Below, piece after piece: positions 15,233 to 21,583 of a DNA stretch of 21,583 bases. Each line of letters opens with the position of its first letter. Within the stretch, counting starts at the first letter, position 1. Source of the DNA: a virus; UHGV virus genome UHGV-0131581. The stretch is one strand, 5' to 3'. The notes below the pieces were generated by a model. It made no database searches. It saw nothing but the letters and a program-made list of their open reading frames with translations, and was not told the DNA's origin. A program made the position numbers and the translations under genes.

Positions 15233-15645
15233 TGGGCTACTTTGAGGACTTAACAAAAGCGTTTGATGTTCCGCTGGTAGCCTTCGGAAACACCAACGGC
15301 ATCAAGGTTGCGCTTGAAAATATCGACGCGCCGACGTCTACCGATACACCGTATCTGGCGAGTTACATGTTGCTGGCGGATACCGAGCAGGCGGATTTGT
15401 TCTTCACAGAACAACGCGCTGGTGTCTATCAGGTCGACATTAACTACGCATCGGTGAAGGGTAGCGCGCCAATCAATAAAATGGCAGACTTACTTAACAC
15501 GGCGTTTAAAGCAGGTAAGTCATTTTCACGTAACGACATCTGCGCCGAGGTTCAATCGGTTAGCCTGGGGCCGCTGATTGTAGAAAACGGATGGGCCAAA
15601 CGACCATTGTCAATTAACTTTATTGCATTCACCAAGAGGCTGTGA
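15229..15645 (+). CDS. Putative tail terminator protein
   Basis: 138-aa protein immediately upstream of and coupled to the major tail protein gene. Position-based. Confidence 0.35.
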   Translation: MMGYFEDLTKAFDVPLVAFGNTNGIKVALENIDAPTSTDTPYLASYMLLADTEQADLFFTEQRAGVYQVDINYASVKGSAPINKMADLLNTAFKAGKSFSRNDICAEVQSVSLGPLIVENGWAKRPLSINFIAFTKRL

Positions 15646-16814
15646 ATATGGCTACAACTCCTTTTAAGGGCGCGAATACCGCGCAATTCTATGTGGCGGA
15701 AGTGACCCCGGGCGTAACACCTGATAACCCGGTCTGGTCGCCGTTGCGCAACACAGGCGGTGTTCCCGCCGTTACCCGCGACACGCTGGCCTCCAACGAA
15801 CTGGACGGCAGCCGTGAAACTACATCCATCCGCACCGGTAACAGGCAGGTTAGCGGGGAATACGCAATTGAGCTTAGCTCGAAAAGCCAGGACGACTGGC
15901 TGGCTGGCGCTTTAGGCTCTACGTGGCAGTCAGGGGCTTCTCTGTCAGGGTTATCGATTACCGTTGCACCGGCGGGTAAGACGTTCACCCGTGCTGATGG
16001 TAGCTTTATTACCGACGGCGTTGAAGTGGGCGACCTGATTGCGTTTACCGACTTAACGGGCGACAACGCTAAGCCGTTTATCGTTACTGCGGTAGAGGCA
16101 CTGGCGGTAACAGGTGCAGGTATCCAGCACACTCTTACCGCGGAGACTGTCACTACCGCGGCCAAAACTGGAGATAAACTGGAAACCGGTAACCAATGTA
16201 AGACGTTCTCTATTCTCACCTGGTACAAAGGCCAGTGCGGAGGGGCCAGTGTATATACGCTGACCAAAGGCGTTGAAGTTTCGGGTTTTACCGTTGAACA
16301 GGCAGTTAATGCGATGGTAACTGGCAGCTTCCCGTTCATCGGTCGCAGTCAGGAGATTCTCACCGAGCAGCCGTCCGGTTCCGACTTCTCTTCCGTTACG
16401 TTTGGTGACGAGCCGTTCTCCTCGGTTGACGTTTCTGTGTTCGATGGGTCTACGCCGTTGCGTTGCGACAGTCTGACCATCACTAACGACAACAGCGCGT
16501 CCGCACAGTTCGAACTCGGCAACACTAACGTGGCCTTTGTGGAACGTAGCCGCGCAGCTAACACATTCTCTATCTCCGGCAAACTGTACGACATGGCTAT
16601 GATTCAGAAGTTTATCAACGAACAGCAGGTAGAGATTAACTCTATTCTGGCTGGGGTAAACGGTGCTATGTCTTTCAGTTTGAAACGCGCAGAGCTTACG
16701 GCGGTTACGCCAGAGATTGGCGGACCTGAGTCAATCACTCAGTCCATTGAAGGACAGTCCACAGGCAATCAATATCAATCATCTATCGTAATTCAACGTA
16801 TTAGTTACGCGTAA
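15642..16814 (+). CDS. Major tail protein
   Basis: 390-aa Thr/Ser/Gly-rich protein preceding the chaperone and tape-measure genes and followed by a strong terminator. Synteny-based. Confidence 0.6.
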   Translation: MNMATTPFKGANTAQFYVAEVTPGVTPDNPVWSPLRNTGGVPAVTRDTLASNELDGSRETTSIRTGNRQVSGEYAIELSSKSQDDWLAGALGSTWQSGASLSGLSITVAPAGKTFTRADGSFITDGVEVGDLIAFTDLTGDNAKPFIVTAVEALAVTGAGIQHTLTAETVTTAAKTGDKLETGNQCKTFSILTWYKGQCGGASVYTLTKGVEVSGFTVEQAVNAMVTGSFPFIGRSQEILTEQPSGSDFSSVTFGDEPFSSVDVSVFDGSTPLRCDSLTITNDNSASAQFELGNTNVAFVERSRAANTFSISGKLYDMAMIQKFINEQQVEINSILAGVNGAMSFSLKRAELTAVTPEIGGPESITQSIEGQSTGNQYQSSIVIQRISYA

Positions 16815-16841: not shown

Positions 16842-17072
16842 TTACTCATCAATATTGCTTCGGTATTCCCGCAACTTCTCCAGACTTTCAATTGCTTCTG
16901 CTAAGTCGGTTACGGTGTCCTTGTGCCCACGTAAACCCATGCACAATAGCTTCTTCAATGCGTGCTGTAACGCCGGGTCGCGGATGTCGAAGGCGCGCAG
17001 CACATCGTAAACGTCTACGGTCATAGTGCTGCCGTGAGTGTTTGTCATTGTGCGGTTGTATTTTGAAGTCAT
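16842..17072 (-). CDS. Small hypothetical protein (76 aa)
   Basis: Minus-strand ORF ATGA-coupled to the HNH gene; contains DVYDVLRAFDIRDPALQHALKKLL. I do not recognise the family with certainty. Confidence 0.5.
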   Translation of the reverse strand: MTSKYNRTMTNTHGSTMTVDVYDVLRAFDIRDPALQHALKKLLCMGLRGHKDTVTDLAEAIESLEKLREYRSNIDE

Positions 17073-17542
17073 TTTCCGTGCCTCTCAGTAAAGTCTTTCT
17101 TTTCTTTGTAAAAACATTCTGCATATCTCACGGCGTCTTCTTTTTGGTCAAAACGCTTGGCTATCCTATTCCCGTTATATTGAATTTGAACGACCCATTT
17201 ACCGTTATATGTTTTACTAACCCCGGTAACACCAGACGAGTTATCCCTGCGCTTTGCTGCATTTTTGCAGTTTATGTGCCGGTCGCACAGTCGAAGATTC
17301 TCTATACGGTTATCGCTTTTCACACCGTTTATATGGTCAATCTCCTTGCCTTCTGGTATAGCTCCGTTAAACATTTCCCATATAATTCTGTGGGCGAATG
17401 TCATTTTTGATCCTAGTTTAGTTCTTACATATCCGCGGTGGTCAACGTACCCTACTTTACGTCCTTTCGGGTACTTAGGGTTTACGCTGTCCTTAGCGTA
17501 AAGATTCCCGTTTTCGTATTCGTAAACGTTATTCCATGTCAA
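17069..17542 (-). CDS. HNH homing endonuclease with AP2-type DNA-binding domain
   Basis: YVDHRGYVR ... IDHINGVKSDNRIENLRLCDRHINCKN (HNH_3-type core) followed by SGVTGVSKTYNGKWVVQIQYNGNRIAKRFDQKEDAVRYAECFY (AP2-like). Confidence 0.85.
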   Translation of the reverse strand: MTWNNVYEYENGNLYAKDSVNPKYPKGRKVGYVDHRGYVRTKLGSKMTFAHRIIWEMFNGAIPEGKEIDHINGVKSDNRIENLRLCDRHINCKNAAKRRDNSSGVTGVSKTYNGKWVVQIQYNGNRIAKRFDQKEDAVRYAECFYKEKKDFTERHGK

Positions 17543-18678
17543 TTTATACCCCCTATCATTTCTGGTGATATTGTGAGGCGTGCCACCTCCCCATATTCTG
17601 CACTATATGTTATCACGTTAGCACTACGGCCAGACATCCAACCCCCTCGCGATGCGTAAGCATCTTTCGCCGCCAGGGTGCGGTGCTGTTCGACTACCAT
17701 ATTACGGCTCTCTACTAGTTTCTGATGATGTAGATGGCCTACATGGGCGTAACTGTATGTGCTTTCACCGAAAGCCTTACGGAATTTAGAAATCATTACT
17801 GACTCTATGGCATCGAATCTCGCACGGTGTCCGTGGTGCATGAACAGCGTAGTTTTTCCATGCTGAACCATCTTGTATACGTCGGGGGAGGTGTCCACAA
17901 ATACGCGAGGTTCGTTGTCATACAATGTGCAGAACATTTCGGCAAGCCATACGGAGCCGACAGGGTCGTGGTTACCTTGGACGATTAAAAGTTTGACTGT
18001 GTGATGTTTAACCAGAGCCATATCAACAACACGGCGTACCATACGAATCATGTAGCGGACCAGTTTCTGATAGCGCGTATCCGCGTCTAACACATGACGT
18101 GACTCAGGTGTAACGGCATCCAGACTATCGAAGTGCGCGAAATCCCCCAGCAGGTTAATAACTCCTGTTCCTGCGTCCGGCGCTTTCTGAAACGCCGCGT
18201 CGAACCATCGAGAGAACAGGTCTTCCGCGATTTTCATATCCCAGTCGTCGCCGCTCTCGTCGGCCCAGGCCAGCATACCGAGATGGAAGTCAGATACCGT
18301 GTAAAGATTGAGTAGTTTATCGTCACGTTTGGCCCGAACGGCTTTAACAGGCGCAACCGGCGTAATCTCTGACTTCATGCCCTCAATTACGGCTTTCATC
18401 AACTCAACCTGACGTTCGGCATCGGTGTCTGTCTTAACCCATTGCAACTTAGTGTTGCCGAACTCGTCTACCAGTGACGACGTCCCTTTAATCTTGTAAC
18501 CGTCTGGTACAAGGTGGCTAACGTCACGCCCGTGGCCCACACCTTTCTTTGCCAGCTTCGCTTTACGGATACGAATAACTCGGTCTGAGATGCCGTATTT
18601 ACGGGCTATATCTATATTCTTCACCCCGGCGTTCAATTCTTCCTGTAATTGTTCGTCGGTTATTTTCTTCCGGGCCAT
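17539..18678 (-). CDS. HTH domain fused to calcineurin-like metallophosphoesterase (379 aa)
   Basis: N-terminal ~45 aa HTH-like (ITDEQLQEELNAGVKNIDIARKYGISDRVIRIRKAKL). Phosphoesterase motifs in order: SDFHLG (D-x-H), LLGDFAHFD (GD..D), VQGNHDP (GNHD), FMHHGH, HVGHLHH (GHxH). GAGGAAG RBS. Confidence 0.75.
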   Translation of the reverse strand: MARKKITDEQLQEELNAGVKNIDIARKYGISDRVIRIRKAKLAKKGVGHGRDVSHLVPDGYKIKGTSSLVDEFGNTKLQWVKTDTDAERQVELMKAVIEGMKSEITPVAPVKAVRAKRDDKLLNLYTVSDFHLGMLAWADESGDDWDMKIAEDLFSRWFDAAFQKAPDAGTGVINLLGDFAHFDSLDAVTPESRHVLDADTRYQKLVRYMIRMVRRVVDMALVKHHTVKLLIVQGNHDPVGSVWLAEMFCTLYDNEPRVFVDTSPDVYKMVQHGKTTLFMHHGHRARFDAIESVMISKFRKAFGESTYSYAHVGHLHHQKLVESRNMVVEQHRTLAAKDAYASRGGWMSGRSANVITYSAEYGEVARLTISPEMIGGIN

Positions 18679-18743
18679 GCTTACTTCCTCGTGTTTAGGA
18701 TTTGTCCTATTTAACCACAGTGCATTCCTTTAAATAAAGGCGA

Positions 18744-19070
18744 CTATTTACTTTCCACGCCTATCGCCCATCCAGTCATTACCATTTGCAGACGAGTAGC
18801 TGTTAGTAGGCTGTAAAACGCGTCCCCGTTTTTCTCTACCGAACGTATTACCGAGTATGTTACGGCTTGTGCAGGTAGACCTGATTTACCAACCTCTACG
18901 GCAGCCTCACATTCACGAACTGTAGAGTCCTTAAATGCCTTTACAATAGTAGGGTCGGCTTTTTCAAGCACGCCAGAAGTCATAAGAACAGACTCACTAA
19001 ATACCTGTTCGCACGGAGACCCAAAAGCGGCAAAAGACATAAACCCCAGAGCTAATACTAATTTACGCAT
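18744..19070 (-). CDS. Secreted/periplasmic hypothetical protein (108 aa, N-terminal signal peptide)
   Basis: MRKLVLALGFMSFAAFGS: basic N-terminus plus hydrophobic core, no lipobox; GAGGAA RBS; first gene of the minus-strand operon. Confidence 0.5.
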   Translation of the reverse strand: MRKLVLALGFMSFAAFGSPCEQVFSESVLMTSGVLEKADPTIVKAFKDSTVRECEAAVEVGKSGLPAQAVTYSVIRSVEKNGDAFYSLLTATRLQMVMTGWAIGVESK

Positions 19071-19087
19071 AATTATTTCCTCAGTAA

Positions 19088-19222
19088 GTTACAGGTGAAT
19101 AGTACCCTATTATATTGGGGTGTGCAAGTAGTGTGCTAGAATAAGTTTGCGCCTAGTGTCGCACACGAAAAGCGGGTGGTTCCCGTCTGGCGCATTTCCC
19201 TTAACCTGTAACCTCTTAACCA
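19088..19222 (+). promoter_or_regulatory. Divergent promoter/operator region between the minus-strand island and the tail chaperone gene
   Basis: GTTACA (19088-19093), 17 nt, TATATT (19111-19116); GTGTGC direct repeats at 19120 and 19131 with inverted copy GCACAC at 19162-19167; TTAACC-TG-TAACC-TC-TTAACC at 19199-19222. Confidence 0.35.
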
Positions 19223-19234
19223 AAGGATTAAAGA

Positions 19235-19651
19235 ATGAAACTTTCTGATTTCTATTTTGCGGACCGCCATGCTGTAGGCACTAAAATGCCTATCCTTCTG
19301 CCGAGTGGTAAAGACTCCGGTGAATGGCTGCAGGTCATCGGCCCTGATTGTGACGCGGGTGTTCGTGCGGGCCGCGCCTACACAACGGCAATTCGACGCC
19401 TTACGGAAGAACTTGCGCCATTAGATAAAGAGTGCGAGGCGCTGAATAACTGGGCACGTTATAACGATGAGAAGGGCTGGCGGGTGATGGACCTGAACAA
19501 GCAGCTTGCCGTGGAAATCGTCACCGGTTGGTCATTCGACGAACCGTTCAGCAAAGAGGCGCTGGCTAACCTGTTTGACCAGTACAGCGGGTTGGCAGAA
19601 GCCGTAGTTAAGCACCACACCGATAGCCGCGAGAAACTCTCGGAAAAGTAA
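19235..19651 (+). CDS. Tail assembly chaperone (G-like)
   Basis: 138-aa acidic protein in the conserved slot upstream of the tape measure gene, with an overlapping -1 frame ORF downstream. Confidence 0.55.
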   Translation: MKLSDFYFADRHAVGTKMPILLPSGKDSGEWLQVIGPDCDAGVRAGRAYTTAIRRLTEELAPLDKECEALNNWARYNDEKGWRVMDLNKQLAVEIVTGWSFDEPFSKEALANLFDQYSGLAEAVVKHHTDSREKLSEK

Positions 19652-20013
19652 AAGCGCTGTATGAATTTGCGCAATGGTGTTTTGTTGACCGTCACAAACG
19701 TAAGCAATTTGACGACATCGCGGCAGGCCACCAGGCGGCTTTGATTGCAATGGGCGTGATTAAAGAACCGCAGATGAAAGAAACGACGGGGCCAGAATGC
19801 CCCGTTTCTCTTATCGACGTGTTCGAGAAATACCGTGCCATTAAATTCCTACAGCGCGAAACAGATGATACTATCGTTATAATCCCGCGCGATGCGCTCA
19901 AATGGCAAGATTTGGTAGCGTTTCGTGATGTCGCCGGTTACGGCATAAGTTTGTTCGAAGCCGAGGTTATCATGGGCTTAGACGGAATATTTGAGGGCAG
20001 AGAAGATGGCTGA
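19627..20013 (+). CDS. Probable -1 frameshift extension of the tail assembly chaperone (GT-like product)
   Basis: The -1 frame is open from 19627 to TGA 20011-20013, overlaps the zero-frame stop (19649-19651), and ends 8 nt into the tape measure gene. Candidate slip at GGAAAAG (19642-19648). Confidence 0.4.
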   Translation, partial: PRETLGKVKALYEFAQWCFVDRHKRKQFDDIAAGHQAALIAMGVIKEPQMKETTGPECPVSLIDVFEKYRAIKFLQRETDDTIVIIPRDALKWQDLVAFRDVAGYGISLFEAEVIMGLDGIFEGREDG

Positions 20014-21583
20014 TACGGCTTCCCTAATTGCCAGAGTAAAAACAGAAGGTGCTGACGTAGCTGCCAAACAGCTTGACGCTATGGCTGCATCCGCAGACCG
20101 GGCGGACACATCCGTAAATAAACTAACGCCGGATGTTAATAAAGTTAACACCGCCACATCCAAAGCGGCCTCTGACGGTTTCGCTAAGTTCCGTAACGCC
20201 GCCGGGCAGGTGGGCTTCCAGGTGCAGGACATGGTTGTCCAGTTGCAGTCCGGTACGTCCGCATTCGTAGCAATCGGACAACAAGGTTCTCAGCTTGCGG
20301 GTGCTTTCGGCCCTGGTGGTGCGGTGCTTGGGGCTGTAATTGCTCTTGCGTCAGCTATCGGCGGCGTCTTGTACAAATCGCTAACAGAGGCGGAGGGGAG
20401 TTCAAAAGACCTCGAAGCCGCGCAGAAACAGTTAAAAGACACCTTCCAGCAAACAGCATCTGGCTCTCTCGAACTGACAGACGGCCTCATCCAGCTTACC
20501 CAAATCAGCCGAGAAGCGGCGGAGACTCAGCTTGCTCTGGCTAAGGCTAACGCAGACCTTATCGCGCAGCAAACAGCTAAAGCCGTTCGAGAGGACGCAG
20601 AATCATGGGAGACATGGAAAGCATCCACGGCATCGGCTATTAGCCAGTATGATGCGCTGGTCTCTAAGGGCGCGGATGTAGGCGACACGTTAGAAAAACT
20701 AGGCGGCACTTACGAGGGCAACATCGTAGGTGTCAACATGCTGGCACAGAATATCGCGGAGCTTAGCAGTAAGTTCGGGGTTAACCGCGGCCAGGCCCTG
20801 GAGATGATAGCGGCGCAGAGCGCGTTCAATAAAGAGCCGACCGCTGAGAATGCCCGTCGCATCGCCGATGTGTTTACCGACTGGCTGGGTAACACAAAAC
20901 AATTGAACCCGGAGCTTATCCGCCTTACCGATAATGCCAACAAGAATGCCACGGCACTGGAGAACGCTGAGAAGTCGGCAAACGCCGCGGCGGAGGCCCA
21001 AAAGAATCTCGGTCGTAACGTCAACTCAACGACGCAGAGATTCCAGGAACAGAACGAAGCTATCGTTAAGAACCAGCAAATCGCCATCTTAAGCGACCGT
21101 GAGCGCATCCGGGCGCAAGCTGAACTTGATAAGCAGGCGTTTGCTAAACGTGAAGCTGTCACCAAAGAACAGATAGCCGCGTATAACGCCGCCCGTGACG
21201 CGGAAGCGCAGCAAGACATCGCCCGCATCGACAAGACCGAGAAAGAGAAGGCAGACCGCGAGGCTAAATCGAATGAGAAACGCCTGGCGGCGCAAGCCAA
21301 ACGTGAAGAAATGGCGGCTGAACGACAGAAAAAAGCGGCGGAAGATTTCCTGGCTACTGTCGACCGCACAACCGGAGACGAAATTTCACGTATTACAGCG
21401 GCAGAAGAACAGAAACTGGCGAAACTTGAGGAGTTCAACCGCGCAGGAACGATAAGCCAGCAGCAATACGAAAACGCCAAAACTCAAATTATGCTCACAG
21501 CCGAGCAGGCCAGACAGGAAGAACTGGATAAGAAAAGAAAAGAAGCCCAGGAGAAGCAGCAGAAAGGCGACGACTTCATGGCT
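20006..21583 (+). CDS. Tail tape measure protein, N-terminal part (3'-truncated by the window edge)
   Basis: ATG 20006 opens a frame that runs uninterrupted to the window end (526 codons); Ala/Lys/Glu/Gln-rich coiled-coil with an early hydrophobic segment (AFVAIGQQGSQLAGAFGPGGAVLGAVIALASAIGGVLY). Confidence 0.75.
   Translation, partial: MADTASLIARVKTEGADVAAKQLDAMAASADRADTSVNKLTPDVNKVNTATSKAASDGFAKFRNAAGQVGFQVQDMVVQLQSGTSAFVAIGQQGSQLAGAFGPGGAVLGAVIALASAIGGVLYKSLTEAEGSSKDLEAAQKQLKDTFQQTASGSLELTDGLIQLTQISREAAETQLALAKANADLIAQQTAKAVREDAESWETWKASTASAISQYDALVSKGADVGDTLEKLGGTYEGNIVGVNMLAQNIAELSSKFGVNRGQALEMIAAQSAFNKEPTAENARRIADVFTDWLGNTKQLNPELIRLTDNANKNATALENAEKSANAAAEAQKNLGRNVNSTTQRFQEQNEAIVKNQQIAILSDRERIRAQAELDKQAFAKREAVTKEQIAAYNAARDAEAQQDIARIDKTEKEKADREAKSNEKRLAAQAKREEMAAERQKKAAEDFLATVDRTTGDEISRITAAEEQKLAKLEEFNRAGTISQQQYENAKTQIMLTAEQARQEELDKKRKEAQEKQQKGDDFMA

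Follow-up and report, generated by a model that had tools for sequence, protein, structure and literature searches.

A probable -1 ribosomal frameshift at a conserved, minimal A_AAG site in the tail assembly chaperone genes of a K1H-like Kagunavirus and its relatives

How is the second of two overlapping tail assembly chaperone frames translated in a phage where the overlap holds no classical slippery heptamer and the second frame begins at no evident start codon? This question is raised by positions 19235-20013 of UHGV virus genome UHGV-0131581, the whole analysed stretch of which (21,583 nucleotides, nt) is referred to here as the window. The window is the structural-gene (tail) module of a K1H-like Kagunavirus (Guernseyvirinae), and its region 19100-20100 shares 96-97% DNA identity with Escherichia phages EF2-1, fFiEco02, NTEC3, K1H and about 30 others. 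In this region an open reading frame (ORF) for a chaperone resembling the lambda G protein ends in ...CTC TCG GAA AAG TAA, and the -1 frame, closed just upstream by a TAG at 19624-19626, opens 25 nt before the last base of that stop codon, or 22 nt before its first base (Table 1). Very probably, tRNA-Lys slips back by one base in the ribosome on A_AAG, where the chaperone gene has its final sense codon, and a G-T fusion of 259 amino acids (aa) arises beside the 138-aa G protein.

In the mechanism proposed, a small fraction of the ribosomes translating the chaperone gene would move back by one base at A_AAG (19645-19648), with tRNA-Lys leaving AAG (19646-19648) and re-pairing with the overlapping AAA (19645-19647). 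The next codon would be GTA (19648-19650), specifying valine, and reading would continue in the -1 frame to 20013, yielding the fusion alongside an abundant G protein. A slip of the Lys-tRNA in the A site or in the P site would give the same protein. By analogy with gpG and gpGT of lambda, the tape measure protein would be bound through the G part that both products share, and recruitment of the tail tube protein would fall to the T part. We infer that the event is ribosomal, that a single tRNA is involved, and that the fusion is needed in tail assembly.

The evidence that carries this proposal comes from the conservation of the junction. Scanning the 25-nt overlap codon by codon revealed no X_XXY_YYZ heptamer, and the A_AAG within G_GAA_AAG is the only in-frame Z_ZZN element ahead of the stop. 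A lone A_AAG in an overlap of this length could be there by chance; its invariance among relatives exceeds chance. With the fusion as a tblastn query, 502 phage records were matched, including Salmonella phages of the Jerseyvirus and Cornellvirus groups, kagunaviruses, and phages of Serratia, Shewanella and other hosts, and in an evenly spaced sample every listed row covering both halves gave a two-piece (two-frame) match, down to about 50% identity. The junction itself was compared in 93 sequences (12 annotated records, 80 IMG/VR loci) with 58 distinct contexts and 46-100% identity in G, clustered into 26 lineages at a threshold of at least 85% identity across the C-terminal 60 residues of G. 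NNA_AAG stands at the junction in all 93 sequences and all 26 lineages. The codon before AAG is GAA in 63 sequences, GCA in 19, GTA in six, AAA in two, and TCA and GGA in one each, and its third base is always A, even in the four-fold degenerate codons (GCA, GTA, TCA, GGA), of which GCA and GTA have background uses of 22% and 25%. All 26 lineages use AAG for the final lysine, even though most lysines in these genes (57%) are encoded by AAA, and the base preceding the upstream codon varies among G, C and A. Because A_AAG is invariant while the upstream codon and the base before it vary, a single tRNA-Lys slip is favoured. In the window, a tRNA-Glu moving from GAA to GGA could retain two Watson-Crick pairs and a central G.U pair, and this re-pairing is not essential, since pairing at the upstream codon is not conserved in the relatives.

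A preliminary description of this DNA, made from its letters and reading frames, had recognised a chaperone-extension arrangement, a -1 frame opening 25 nt before the zero-frame stop, the lack of a textbook heptamer in the overlap, and GGAAAAG as the only slippery-looking sequence, in which AAG could re-pair as AAA. All of this is borne out: the opening at 19627-19651 and the scan agree with it, A_AAG is invariant while its surroundings vary, and the arrangement is matched by two chaperone families and one protein cluster spanning both halves (see below) and recurs in about 500 phage records. The same description had offered either a single-tRNA slip or an unusual site, and here the comparison goes further, favouring a slip by tRNA-Lys alone. 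Two loci, L050 and L052, speak for this. The -1 opening ranges from 10 to 208 nt in the relatives, and in these two a -1-frame TAA restricts it to the 10 nt of C_GCA_AAG_TAA, where a tRNA on the upstream GCA finds no -1-frame pairing. Two further points had not appeared in that description, namely that the stop abuts the shift codon almost everywhere and that relatives in GenBank already carry the frameshift in their annotation.

The overlap in the window formally permits a -1 shift at some other place, for example on GAG_AAA_C or CTC_TCG, which would add one or more -1-frame residues before the lysine, and the -1-frame codon just ahead of AAA is GGN, for glycine, in many lineages. Across the lineages, however, that codon specifies G, R, V, S or K, the other positions in the overlap allow no re-pairing, the upstream overlap is conserved neither in sequence nor in length, and L050 and L052 leave only C_GCA_AAG for the shift, so that a slip elsewhere is very improbable. 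The same fusion protein could also arise by slippage of RNA polymerase on GGAAAAG, since one inserted A in some transcripts would, as reasoned from the sequence, leave the product identical, AAG and AAA both being lysine codons. The A run is only four long (three in the GCA, GTA and TCA lineages), whereas efficient bacterial slippage has been described for runs of about nine A or T (PMC5009743), and transcriptional slippage is regarded as extremely unlikely.

Canonical heptamers do occur at the same position of the junction, but in only three of the 93 sequences: A_AAA_AAG in L037 and L038, and G_GGA_AAG in L078. Each is one base change away in the upstream codon, and the junction lies near 1609-1615 of each locus. 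A more distant homologue (29% identity) is found in Serratia phage Tlacuache (locus L093, 1612-1632), where the G-like gene ends GGC CGA AAG GGT CGG AAA TAA; a -1-frame ORF, annotated from a GTG, follows CGA_AAG, which is the same hexamer as in IS1222 and the Bacillus cdd gene, and the record has no frameshift annotation. IMG/VR was also scanned for the extended motif AAAGTARNNGCGCTGTA, giving 120 hits, of which 51 were homologues; outside the family, the remaining hits lacked the G/T layout. One look-alike, L097, was rejected as an ordinary gene with a product starting MGFFPKKVKALYDF.

Selection on the -1 frame can be followed from the junction itself. Over the 33 codons straight after the junction in 70 distinct sequences, entropy at -1-frame codon positions 1, 2 and 3 was 0.68, 0.60 and 1.35, the ratio of non-synonymous to synonymous polymorphism (pN/pS) was 0.41 in the -1 frame versus 1.4 in the other two frames, and none of the 70 sequences had a stop codon. 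Judged from this alignment, the codons following the junction are under purifying selection in the -1 frame. Where downstream sequence was captured, the -1 ORF of the relatives is intact at 117-122 aa, with one 47-codon exception in the K1ind1-like group, and it always adjoins the tape measure gene. That the -1 ORF is unexpressed, or a decaying remnant, is therefore hardly credible given its intactness, its coding signature, its membership of Pfam and PHROG families, and its constant abutment to the tape measure gene.

The protein families point to the same junction. The first ORF belongs to Pfam PF08748 Phage_TAC_4 (expectation value, E=1e-08) and the -1 extension to PF23812 Phage_TAC_18 (E=1e-17), both above the curated cut-offs. 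The cluster phrog_15027, 'tail assembly chaperone', has 259 positions, of which 1-138 align to the first ORF (E=2.6e-65) and 137-259 to the -1 ORF, placing the junction at positions 137-139 of the profile; as it spans both halves, it must have been built from fused proteins joined at this same junction. The chaperone pair also matches phrog_313. An AlphaFold model of the fusion, based on an alignment with only five full-length rows, has a confident G domain (residues 11-130, predicted local distance difference test (pLDDT) scores of 81-95) and a single helix (residues 120-147) that crosses the junction at 138/139. Foldseek against BFVD retrieved full-length fused 'tape measure chaperones' of the unrelated phages Seurat, CcrColossus and Sansa, and against the PDB gave a weak match to the HK97 chaperone 2ob9 (E=0.35); a sequence search of the PDB found nothing meaningful. 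A protein homologue search with the fusion gave 28 relatives of the G domain, at no more than 65% identity, and no T-domain hits. An exact cluster look-up returned clusters of 95-632 members, in which the identical fusion occurs together with the 138-aa G protein and T fragments of 64-119 aa.

The feature is of an ordinary kind and has been annotated before. The fusion of the window is identical to YP_010749005.1 of phage fFiEco02, and joined coding sequences (CDSs) are annotated in RefSeq for K1H (ADA82316.1, ORF19A/B) and K1ind1 (ADA82368.1, ORF21A/B), as well as in the Shemara and Shelanagig records of the Texas A&M Center for Phage Technology (CPT), where the product is called 'tail assembly chaperone frameshift product'. 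The fusions predicted from the DNA of K1H, K1ind1, Shemara and Shelanagig are, letter for letter, the deposited products of their joined CDSs. Other sister records, among them Bas71, SETP7, SETP13, EF2-1 and Tsm2, have a stand-alone second ORF, named hypothetical protein or tail assembly chaperone depending on the record, and annotated with at least four different starts: a CTG 5 nt past the stop, a TTG at that same position, an ATG some 34 codons inside the ORF, and others. It follows from this variety of choices that no start for T is evident.

Two elements close to the shift codon are conserved. The first is the zero-frame stop, which directly follows AAG in 25 of the 26 lineages. The sole lineage with a stop that does not abut (L036, 1621-1640) reads GCA AAG TTA TAG, with K V I A L Y in the -1 frame and GTT as the valine codon. 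The G stop is TAG in 64 sequences, TAA in 29 and TGA in none; a TGA here would leave the -1-frame valine codon synonymous (GTG), and among the 27 ORF stops within the window TGA ends 11 and TAG only two. The excess of TAG may come from the -1-frame Asp, Glu or Ala codons. The adjacent stop may be stimulatory: with the A site empty and the release factor slow to bind, tRNA-Lys would be held in the P site and have more time to slip. The second element is the hexamer GCGCTG. For its alanine, all 26 lineages use GCG (background 32%), and for its leucine 24 of the 26 use CTG (background 29%), while the Tyr, Phe and Ala codons around it vary fully at random among the lineages. No conserved pairing partner was found for GCGCUG, its pairing probability being 0.74 versus 0.68 with shuffled tails, and no known motif accounts for its conservation. 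It could be speculated, with considerable doubt, that the UAR stop and the GCGCUG hexamer jointly form a stimulator which is independent of RNA structure and makes a bare A_AAG efficient enough; the hexamer would then act through a sequence-specific contact in the mRNA channel of the ribosome. If true, stop and hexamer would make up a stimulator of -1 frameshifting of a new type, shared throughout the Guernseyvirinae.

A number of observations weigh against the frameshift, and the first lies in this hexamer. Its conserved CTG (19657), a near-cognate start codon 5 nt past the stop, could in principle support termination-reinitiation, and T might be made as a separate protein, either by reinitiation there after the TAA or by initiation at TTG 19741 or ATG 19750. 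The retention of the CTG well above its background use favours this, as do the Jerseyvirus branch, which has TTG at the CTG position with AGGA ahead of it, and the many GenBank records that annotate a separate T ORF, such 118-aa ORFs being gathered in PHROG 4557. A separate T, however, leaves unexplained both the invariant A before AAG at four-fold degenerate sites and the use of AAG in every lineage, and the canonical heptamers at the junction of some lineages make sense only for frameshifting. Most lineages have no sequence resembling a Shine-Dalgarno (SD) element for such a start, and in L012 the CTG is replaced by CTC, the next start codon being 12 codons further on. No ATG, GTG or TTG is conserved near the junction among the relatives. 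In most lineages the first of these is an ATG about 34 codons in (near +101), which has no SD sequence and as a start would cost the protein 34 conserved residues on which purifying selection acts, and seven sequences have none within 130 nt. Separate translation of T is accordingly judged improbable. The preliminary description had named a start of its own for the downstream frame as what would refute the frameshift; the missing conserved ATG, GTG or TTG and the selection from the junction onwards mostly answer against such a start, with the conserved CTG as a caveat.

The other objections concern the efficiency of the -1 slip on A_AAG and the support for its product. A downstream stimulatory structure, which the preliminary description had proposed to look for, was not found in conserved form. 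RNAalifold on 40 diverse junctions gave a consensus of -0.33 kcal/mol in which three pairs were invariant and none showed covariation, the 118 nt and 58 nt downstream of the site in the window fold no better than shuffles (minimum free energy z = +1.3 and +0.24), and the median folding z over 76 relatives was about 0, so that no conserved 3' structure is indicated. Folding the window and three relatives one by one likewise gave no conserved or significant structure. Hairpins of -17 to -20 kcal/mol starting from GCGCUG in L050 and L066 were rejected, as they were not better than dinucleotide shuffles. An SD-like 4-mer lies upstream in only 14 of the 76 relatives and is absent from the window. 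In Escherichia coli reporters, Z_ZZN tetramers lacking a stimulator gave 0.147% frameshifting versus a background of 0.112%, and it took the IS3 pseudoknot to bring A_AAG to 5.6% (PMC4066793). In the AlphaFold model the T part is of low confidence (pLDDT 37-73), because only five full-length sequences were usable. In the genome note on the relative Shashou, the frameshift was not called, as a canonical slippery sequence was lacking (PMC6776780), and the literature searched (Jerseyvirus, Kagunavirus, Guernseyvirinae, K1H, K1ind1) contained no experimental evidence for the fusion. Alternatively, a very low level of fusion may be enough.

The genes surrounding the chaperone pair (Table 1) are consistent with a tail module. 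The order of tail tube gene, chaperone pair and tape measure gene is retained but not their adjacency, four minus-strand ORFs (16842-19070) lying between tube and chaperone genes. The ATG of the tape measure gene (20006) overlaps the end and stop codon of the -1 ORF, within ATGGCTGA. The minus-strand cluster consists of a 76-aa ORF and three longer ORFs. At the counterpart of the HNH gene of the window, K1H carries a polynucleotide kinase and an ATP-binding protein; as different genes are present in the same place, this spot appears to be mosaic. The cluster is separated from the chaperone gene by a divergent intergenic region of 164 nt (19071-19234), with promoter-like hexamers on both strands (+19088-19116, -19099-19072), and judging from these the chaperone and tape measure genes are probably transcribed from a promoter of their own. 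In the Bas71 record, a 30-aa minus-strand ORF is annotated in the equivalent region. Within the T coding region there is a terminator-like hairpin (19785-19806) of eight pairs, six of them G-C, followed by a T-rich tail; it is made by the codons of a conserved G-P-E-C-P motif and, being 137 nt from the shift site, is too far away to stimulate frameshifting.

Table 1. Positions of the chaperone pair, its putative shift site and neighbouring genes in the 21,583-nt window.
Feature	Position	Strand	Remarks
Tail tube gene	15642-16814	+	Pfam PF18906 Phage_tube_2, E=1.4e-38
HNH_3 endonuclease, 157 aa	17069-17542	-	E=2.4e-21
Metallophosphoesterase-like exonuclease, 379 aa	17539-18678	-	
108-aa ORF	18744-19070	-	phrog_14165
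G-like tail assembly chaperone ORF, zero frame, 138 aa	19235-19651	+	Stop TAA 19649-19651
-1-frame ORF	Open 19627 to TGA 20011-20013	+	129 codons counting the stop
Frame overlap, both frames open	19627-19651	+	25 nt; shift must fall here
Candidate shift site G_GAA_AAG	19642-19648	+	Core tetranucleotide A_AAG 19645-19648
Zero-frame stop TAA, directly 3' of shift codon	19649-19651	+	Possible 'shifty stop'
GCGCTG hexamer, Ala-Leu in -1 frame	19654-19659	+	5 nt past shift codon; synonymous-site conservation
T-like extension, -1 frame, 121 aa	19648-20013	+	GTA 19648-19650 to TGA 20011-20013
Predicted full GT product, 259 aa	join(19235..19648,19648..20013)	+	Junction ...REKLSEK followed by VKALYEF...
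Tape measure gene, 5' part, exceeds window	20006-21583	+	phrog_1538, E=2e-109; annotated tape measure in relatives

For annotation, the main consequence is that some 500 records of Guernseyvirinae and related phages treat the pair in two ways, some as one CDS joined by a frameshift and others with a separate second ORF whose start is arbitrary, and that one rule, a join at NNA_AAG followed by GTA, fits all 26 lineages. For the study of recoding, the family presents a natural, strongly conserved and bare A_AAG with no detectable RNA structure, in contrast to the near-background activity of such tetramers in reporters, and the locus would be a simple system for asking whether a pseudoknot can be dispensed with where a stop is adjacent and a short sequence lies downstream.

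The closest known systems are those of the K1H group, in which K1H ORF19A/19B, K1ind1 ORF21A/B and the corresponding genes of Shemara, Shelanagig and fFiEco02 are the same gene pair with the same junction. K1H and fFiEco02 have about 96% DNA identity to the window across 19100-20100, and the joined CDSs of this group differ in no substantive way from that of the window; they are known from annotation, not from experiment. The general model is the -1 frameshift of lambda gpG/gpGT, a tail-chaperone frameshift that is conserved in dsDNA phages (Levin 1993; Xu, Hendrix, Duda 2004, per PMC5009743). Like lambda G and GT, the genes of the window are two overlapping ORFs directly ahead of the tape measure gene, with a -1 extension that lacks its own start, and a low level of fusion would be expected beside an abundant G protein. 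The tRNA-Lys would slip on AAG, the codon that likewise stands second in the lambda site G_GGA_AAG. Unlike lambda, the window lacks an X_XXY_YYZ heptamer, its upstream codon, GAA rather than GGA, is unconserved in the relatives, the candidate shift codon ends the coding frame with the stop directly after it, and the tube gene is not adjacent, as the minus-strand cluster of 2.4 kilobases intervenes.

The dnaX gene of E. coli has a 5' SD-like element and a 3' hairpin. Its A_AAA_AAG is a stimulator-containing site (PMC4066793), and its ratio of shifted to unshifted product is given as 1:1 in a section heading of PMC5009743. As in dnaX, tRNA-Lys would slip on AAG in the window, and the relatives L037 and L038 carry the exact dnaX heptamer; unlike dnaX, the window has neither the full heptamer, the 5' SD-like element and the 3' hairpin, nor the 1:1 ratio. 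The stop codon next to the shift codon recalls another class. Weiss is said to have described, in 1987, the 'shifty stop', in which the tRNA in the P site is made more prone to slip by a stop codon occupying the A site. The CUU_UGA of prfB is an example of it, and antizyme is another (PMC5009743). The window and all but one of the lineages resemble shifty stops in having a stop immediately 3' of the slip codon; they differ from the best-known programmed examples, which are +1, in that the shift would be -1, and L036 lacks the adjacency.

The best comparison for the shift site itself is with the minimal -1 sites. The smallest of these is a Z_ZZN tetramer (PMC5009743), of which A_AAG is the most shift-prone in E. 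coli (PMC4066793), where a single tRNA-Lys serves both AAA and AAG (PMC5009743). From its relatives, the phage of the window presumably has E. coli as its host, and no tRNA gene lies within the window. Natural sites of the A_AAG type are found in IS3 (A_AAG), IS1222 (G_CGA_AAG) and cdd of Bacillus subtilis (A_CGA_AAG) (Licznar 2003 and Sharma 2014, per PMC5009743 and PMC4066793; PMC6815119). With these the window shares a minimal motif, a proposed slip of a lone tRNA-Lys from AAG to AAA, and a variable upstream NNA that need not re-pair. In reporter work, the A_AAG of IS3 was dependent on a 3' pseudoknot (PMC4066793, PMC6815119). On its sequence, the shift site of the window would be placed in this known tetramer and hexamer class, minus the stimulator that is usual for the class: where IS3 has its pseudoknot, the window has no conserved structure or SD-like element, and a stop codon follows directly instead.

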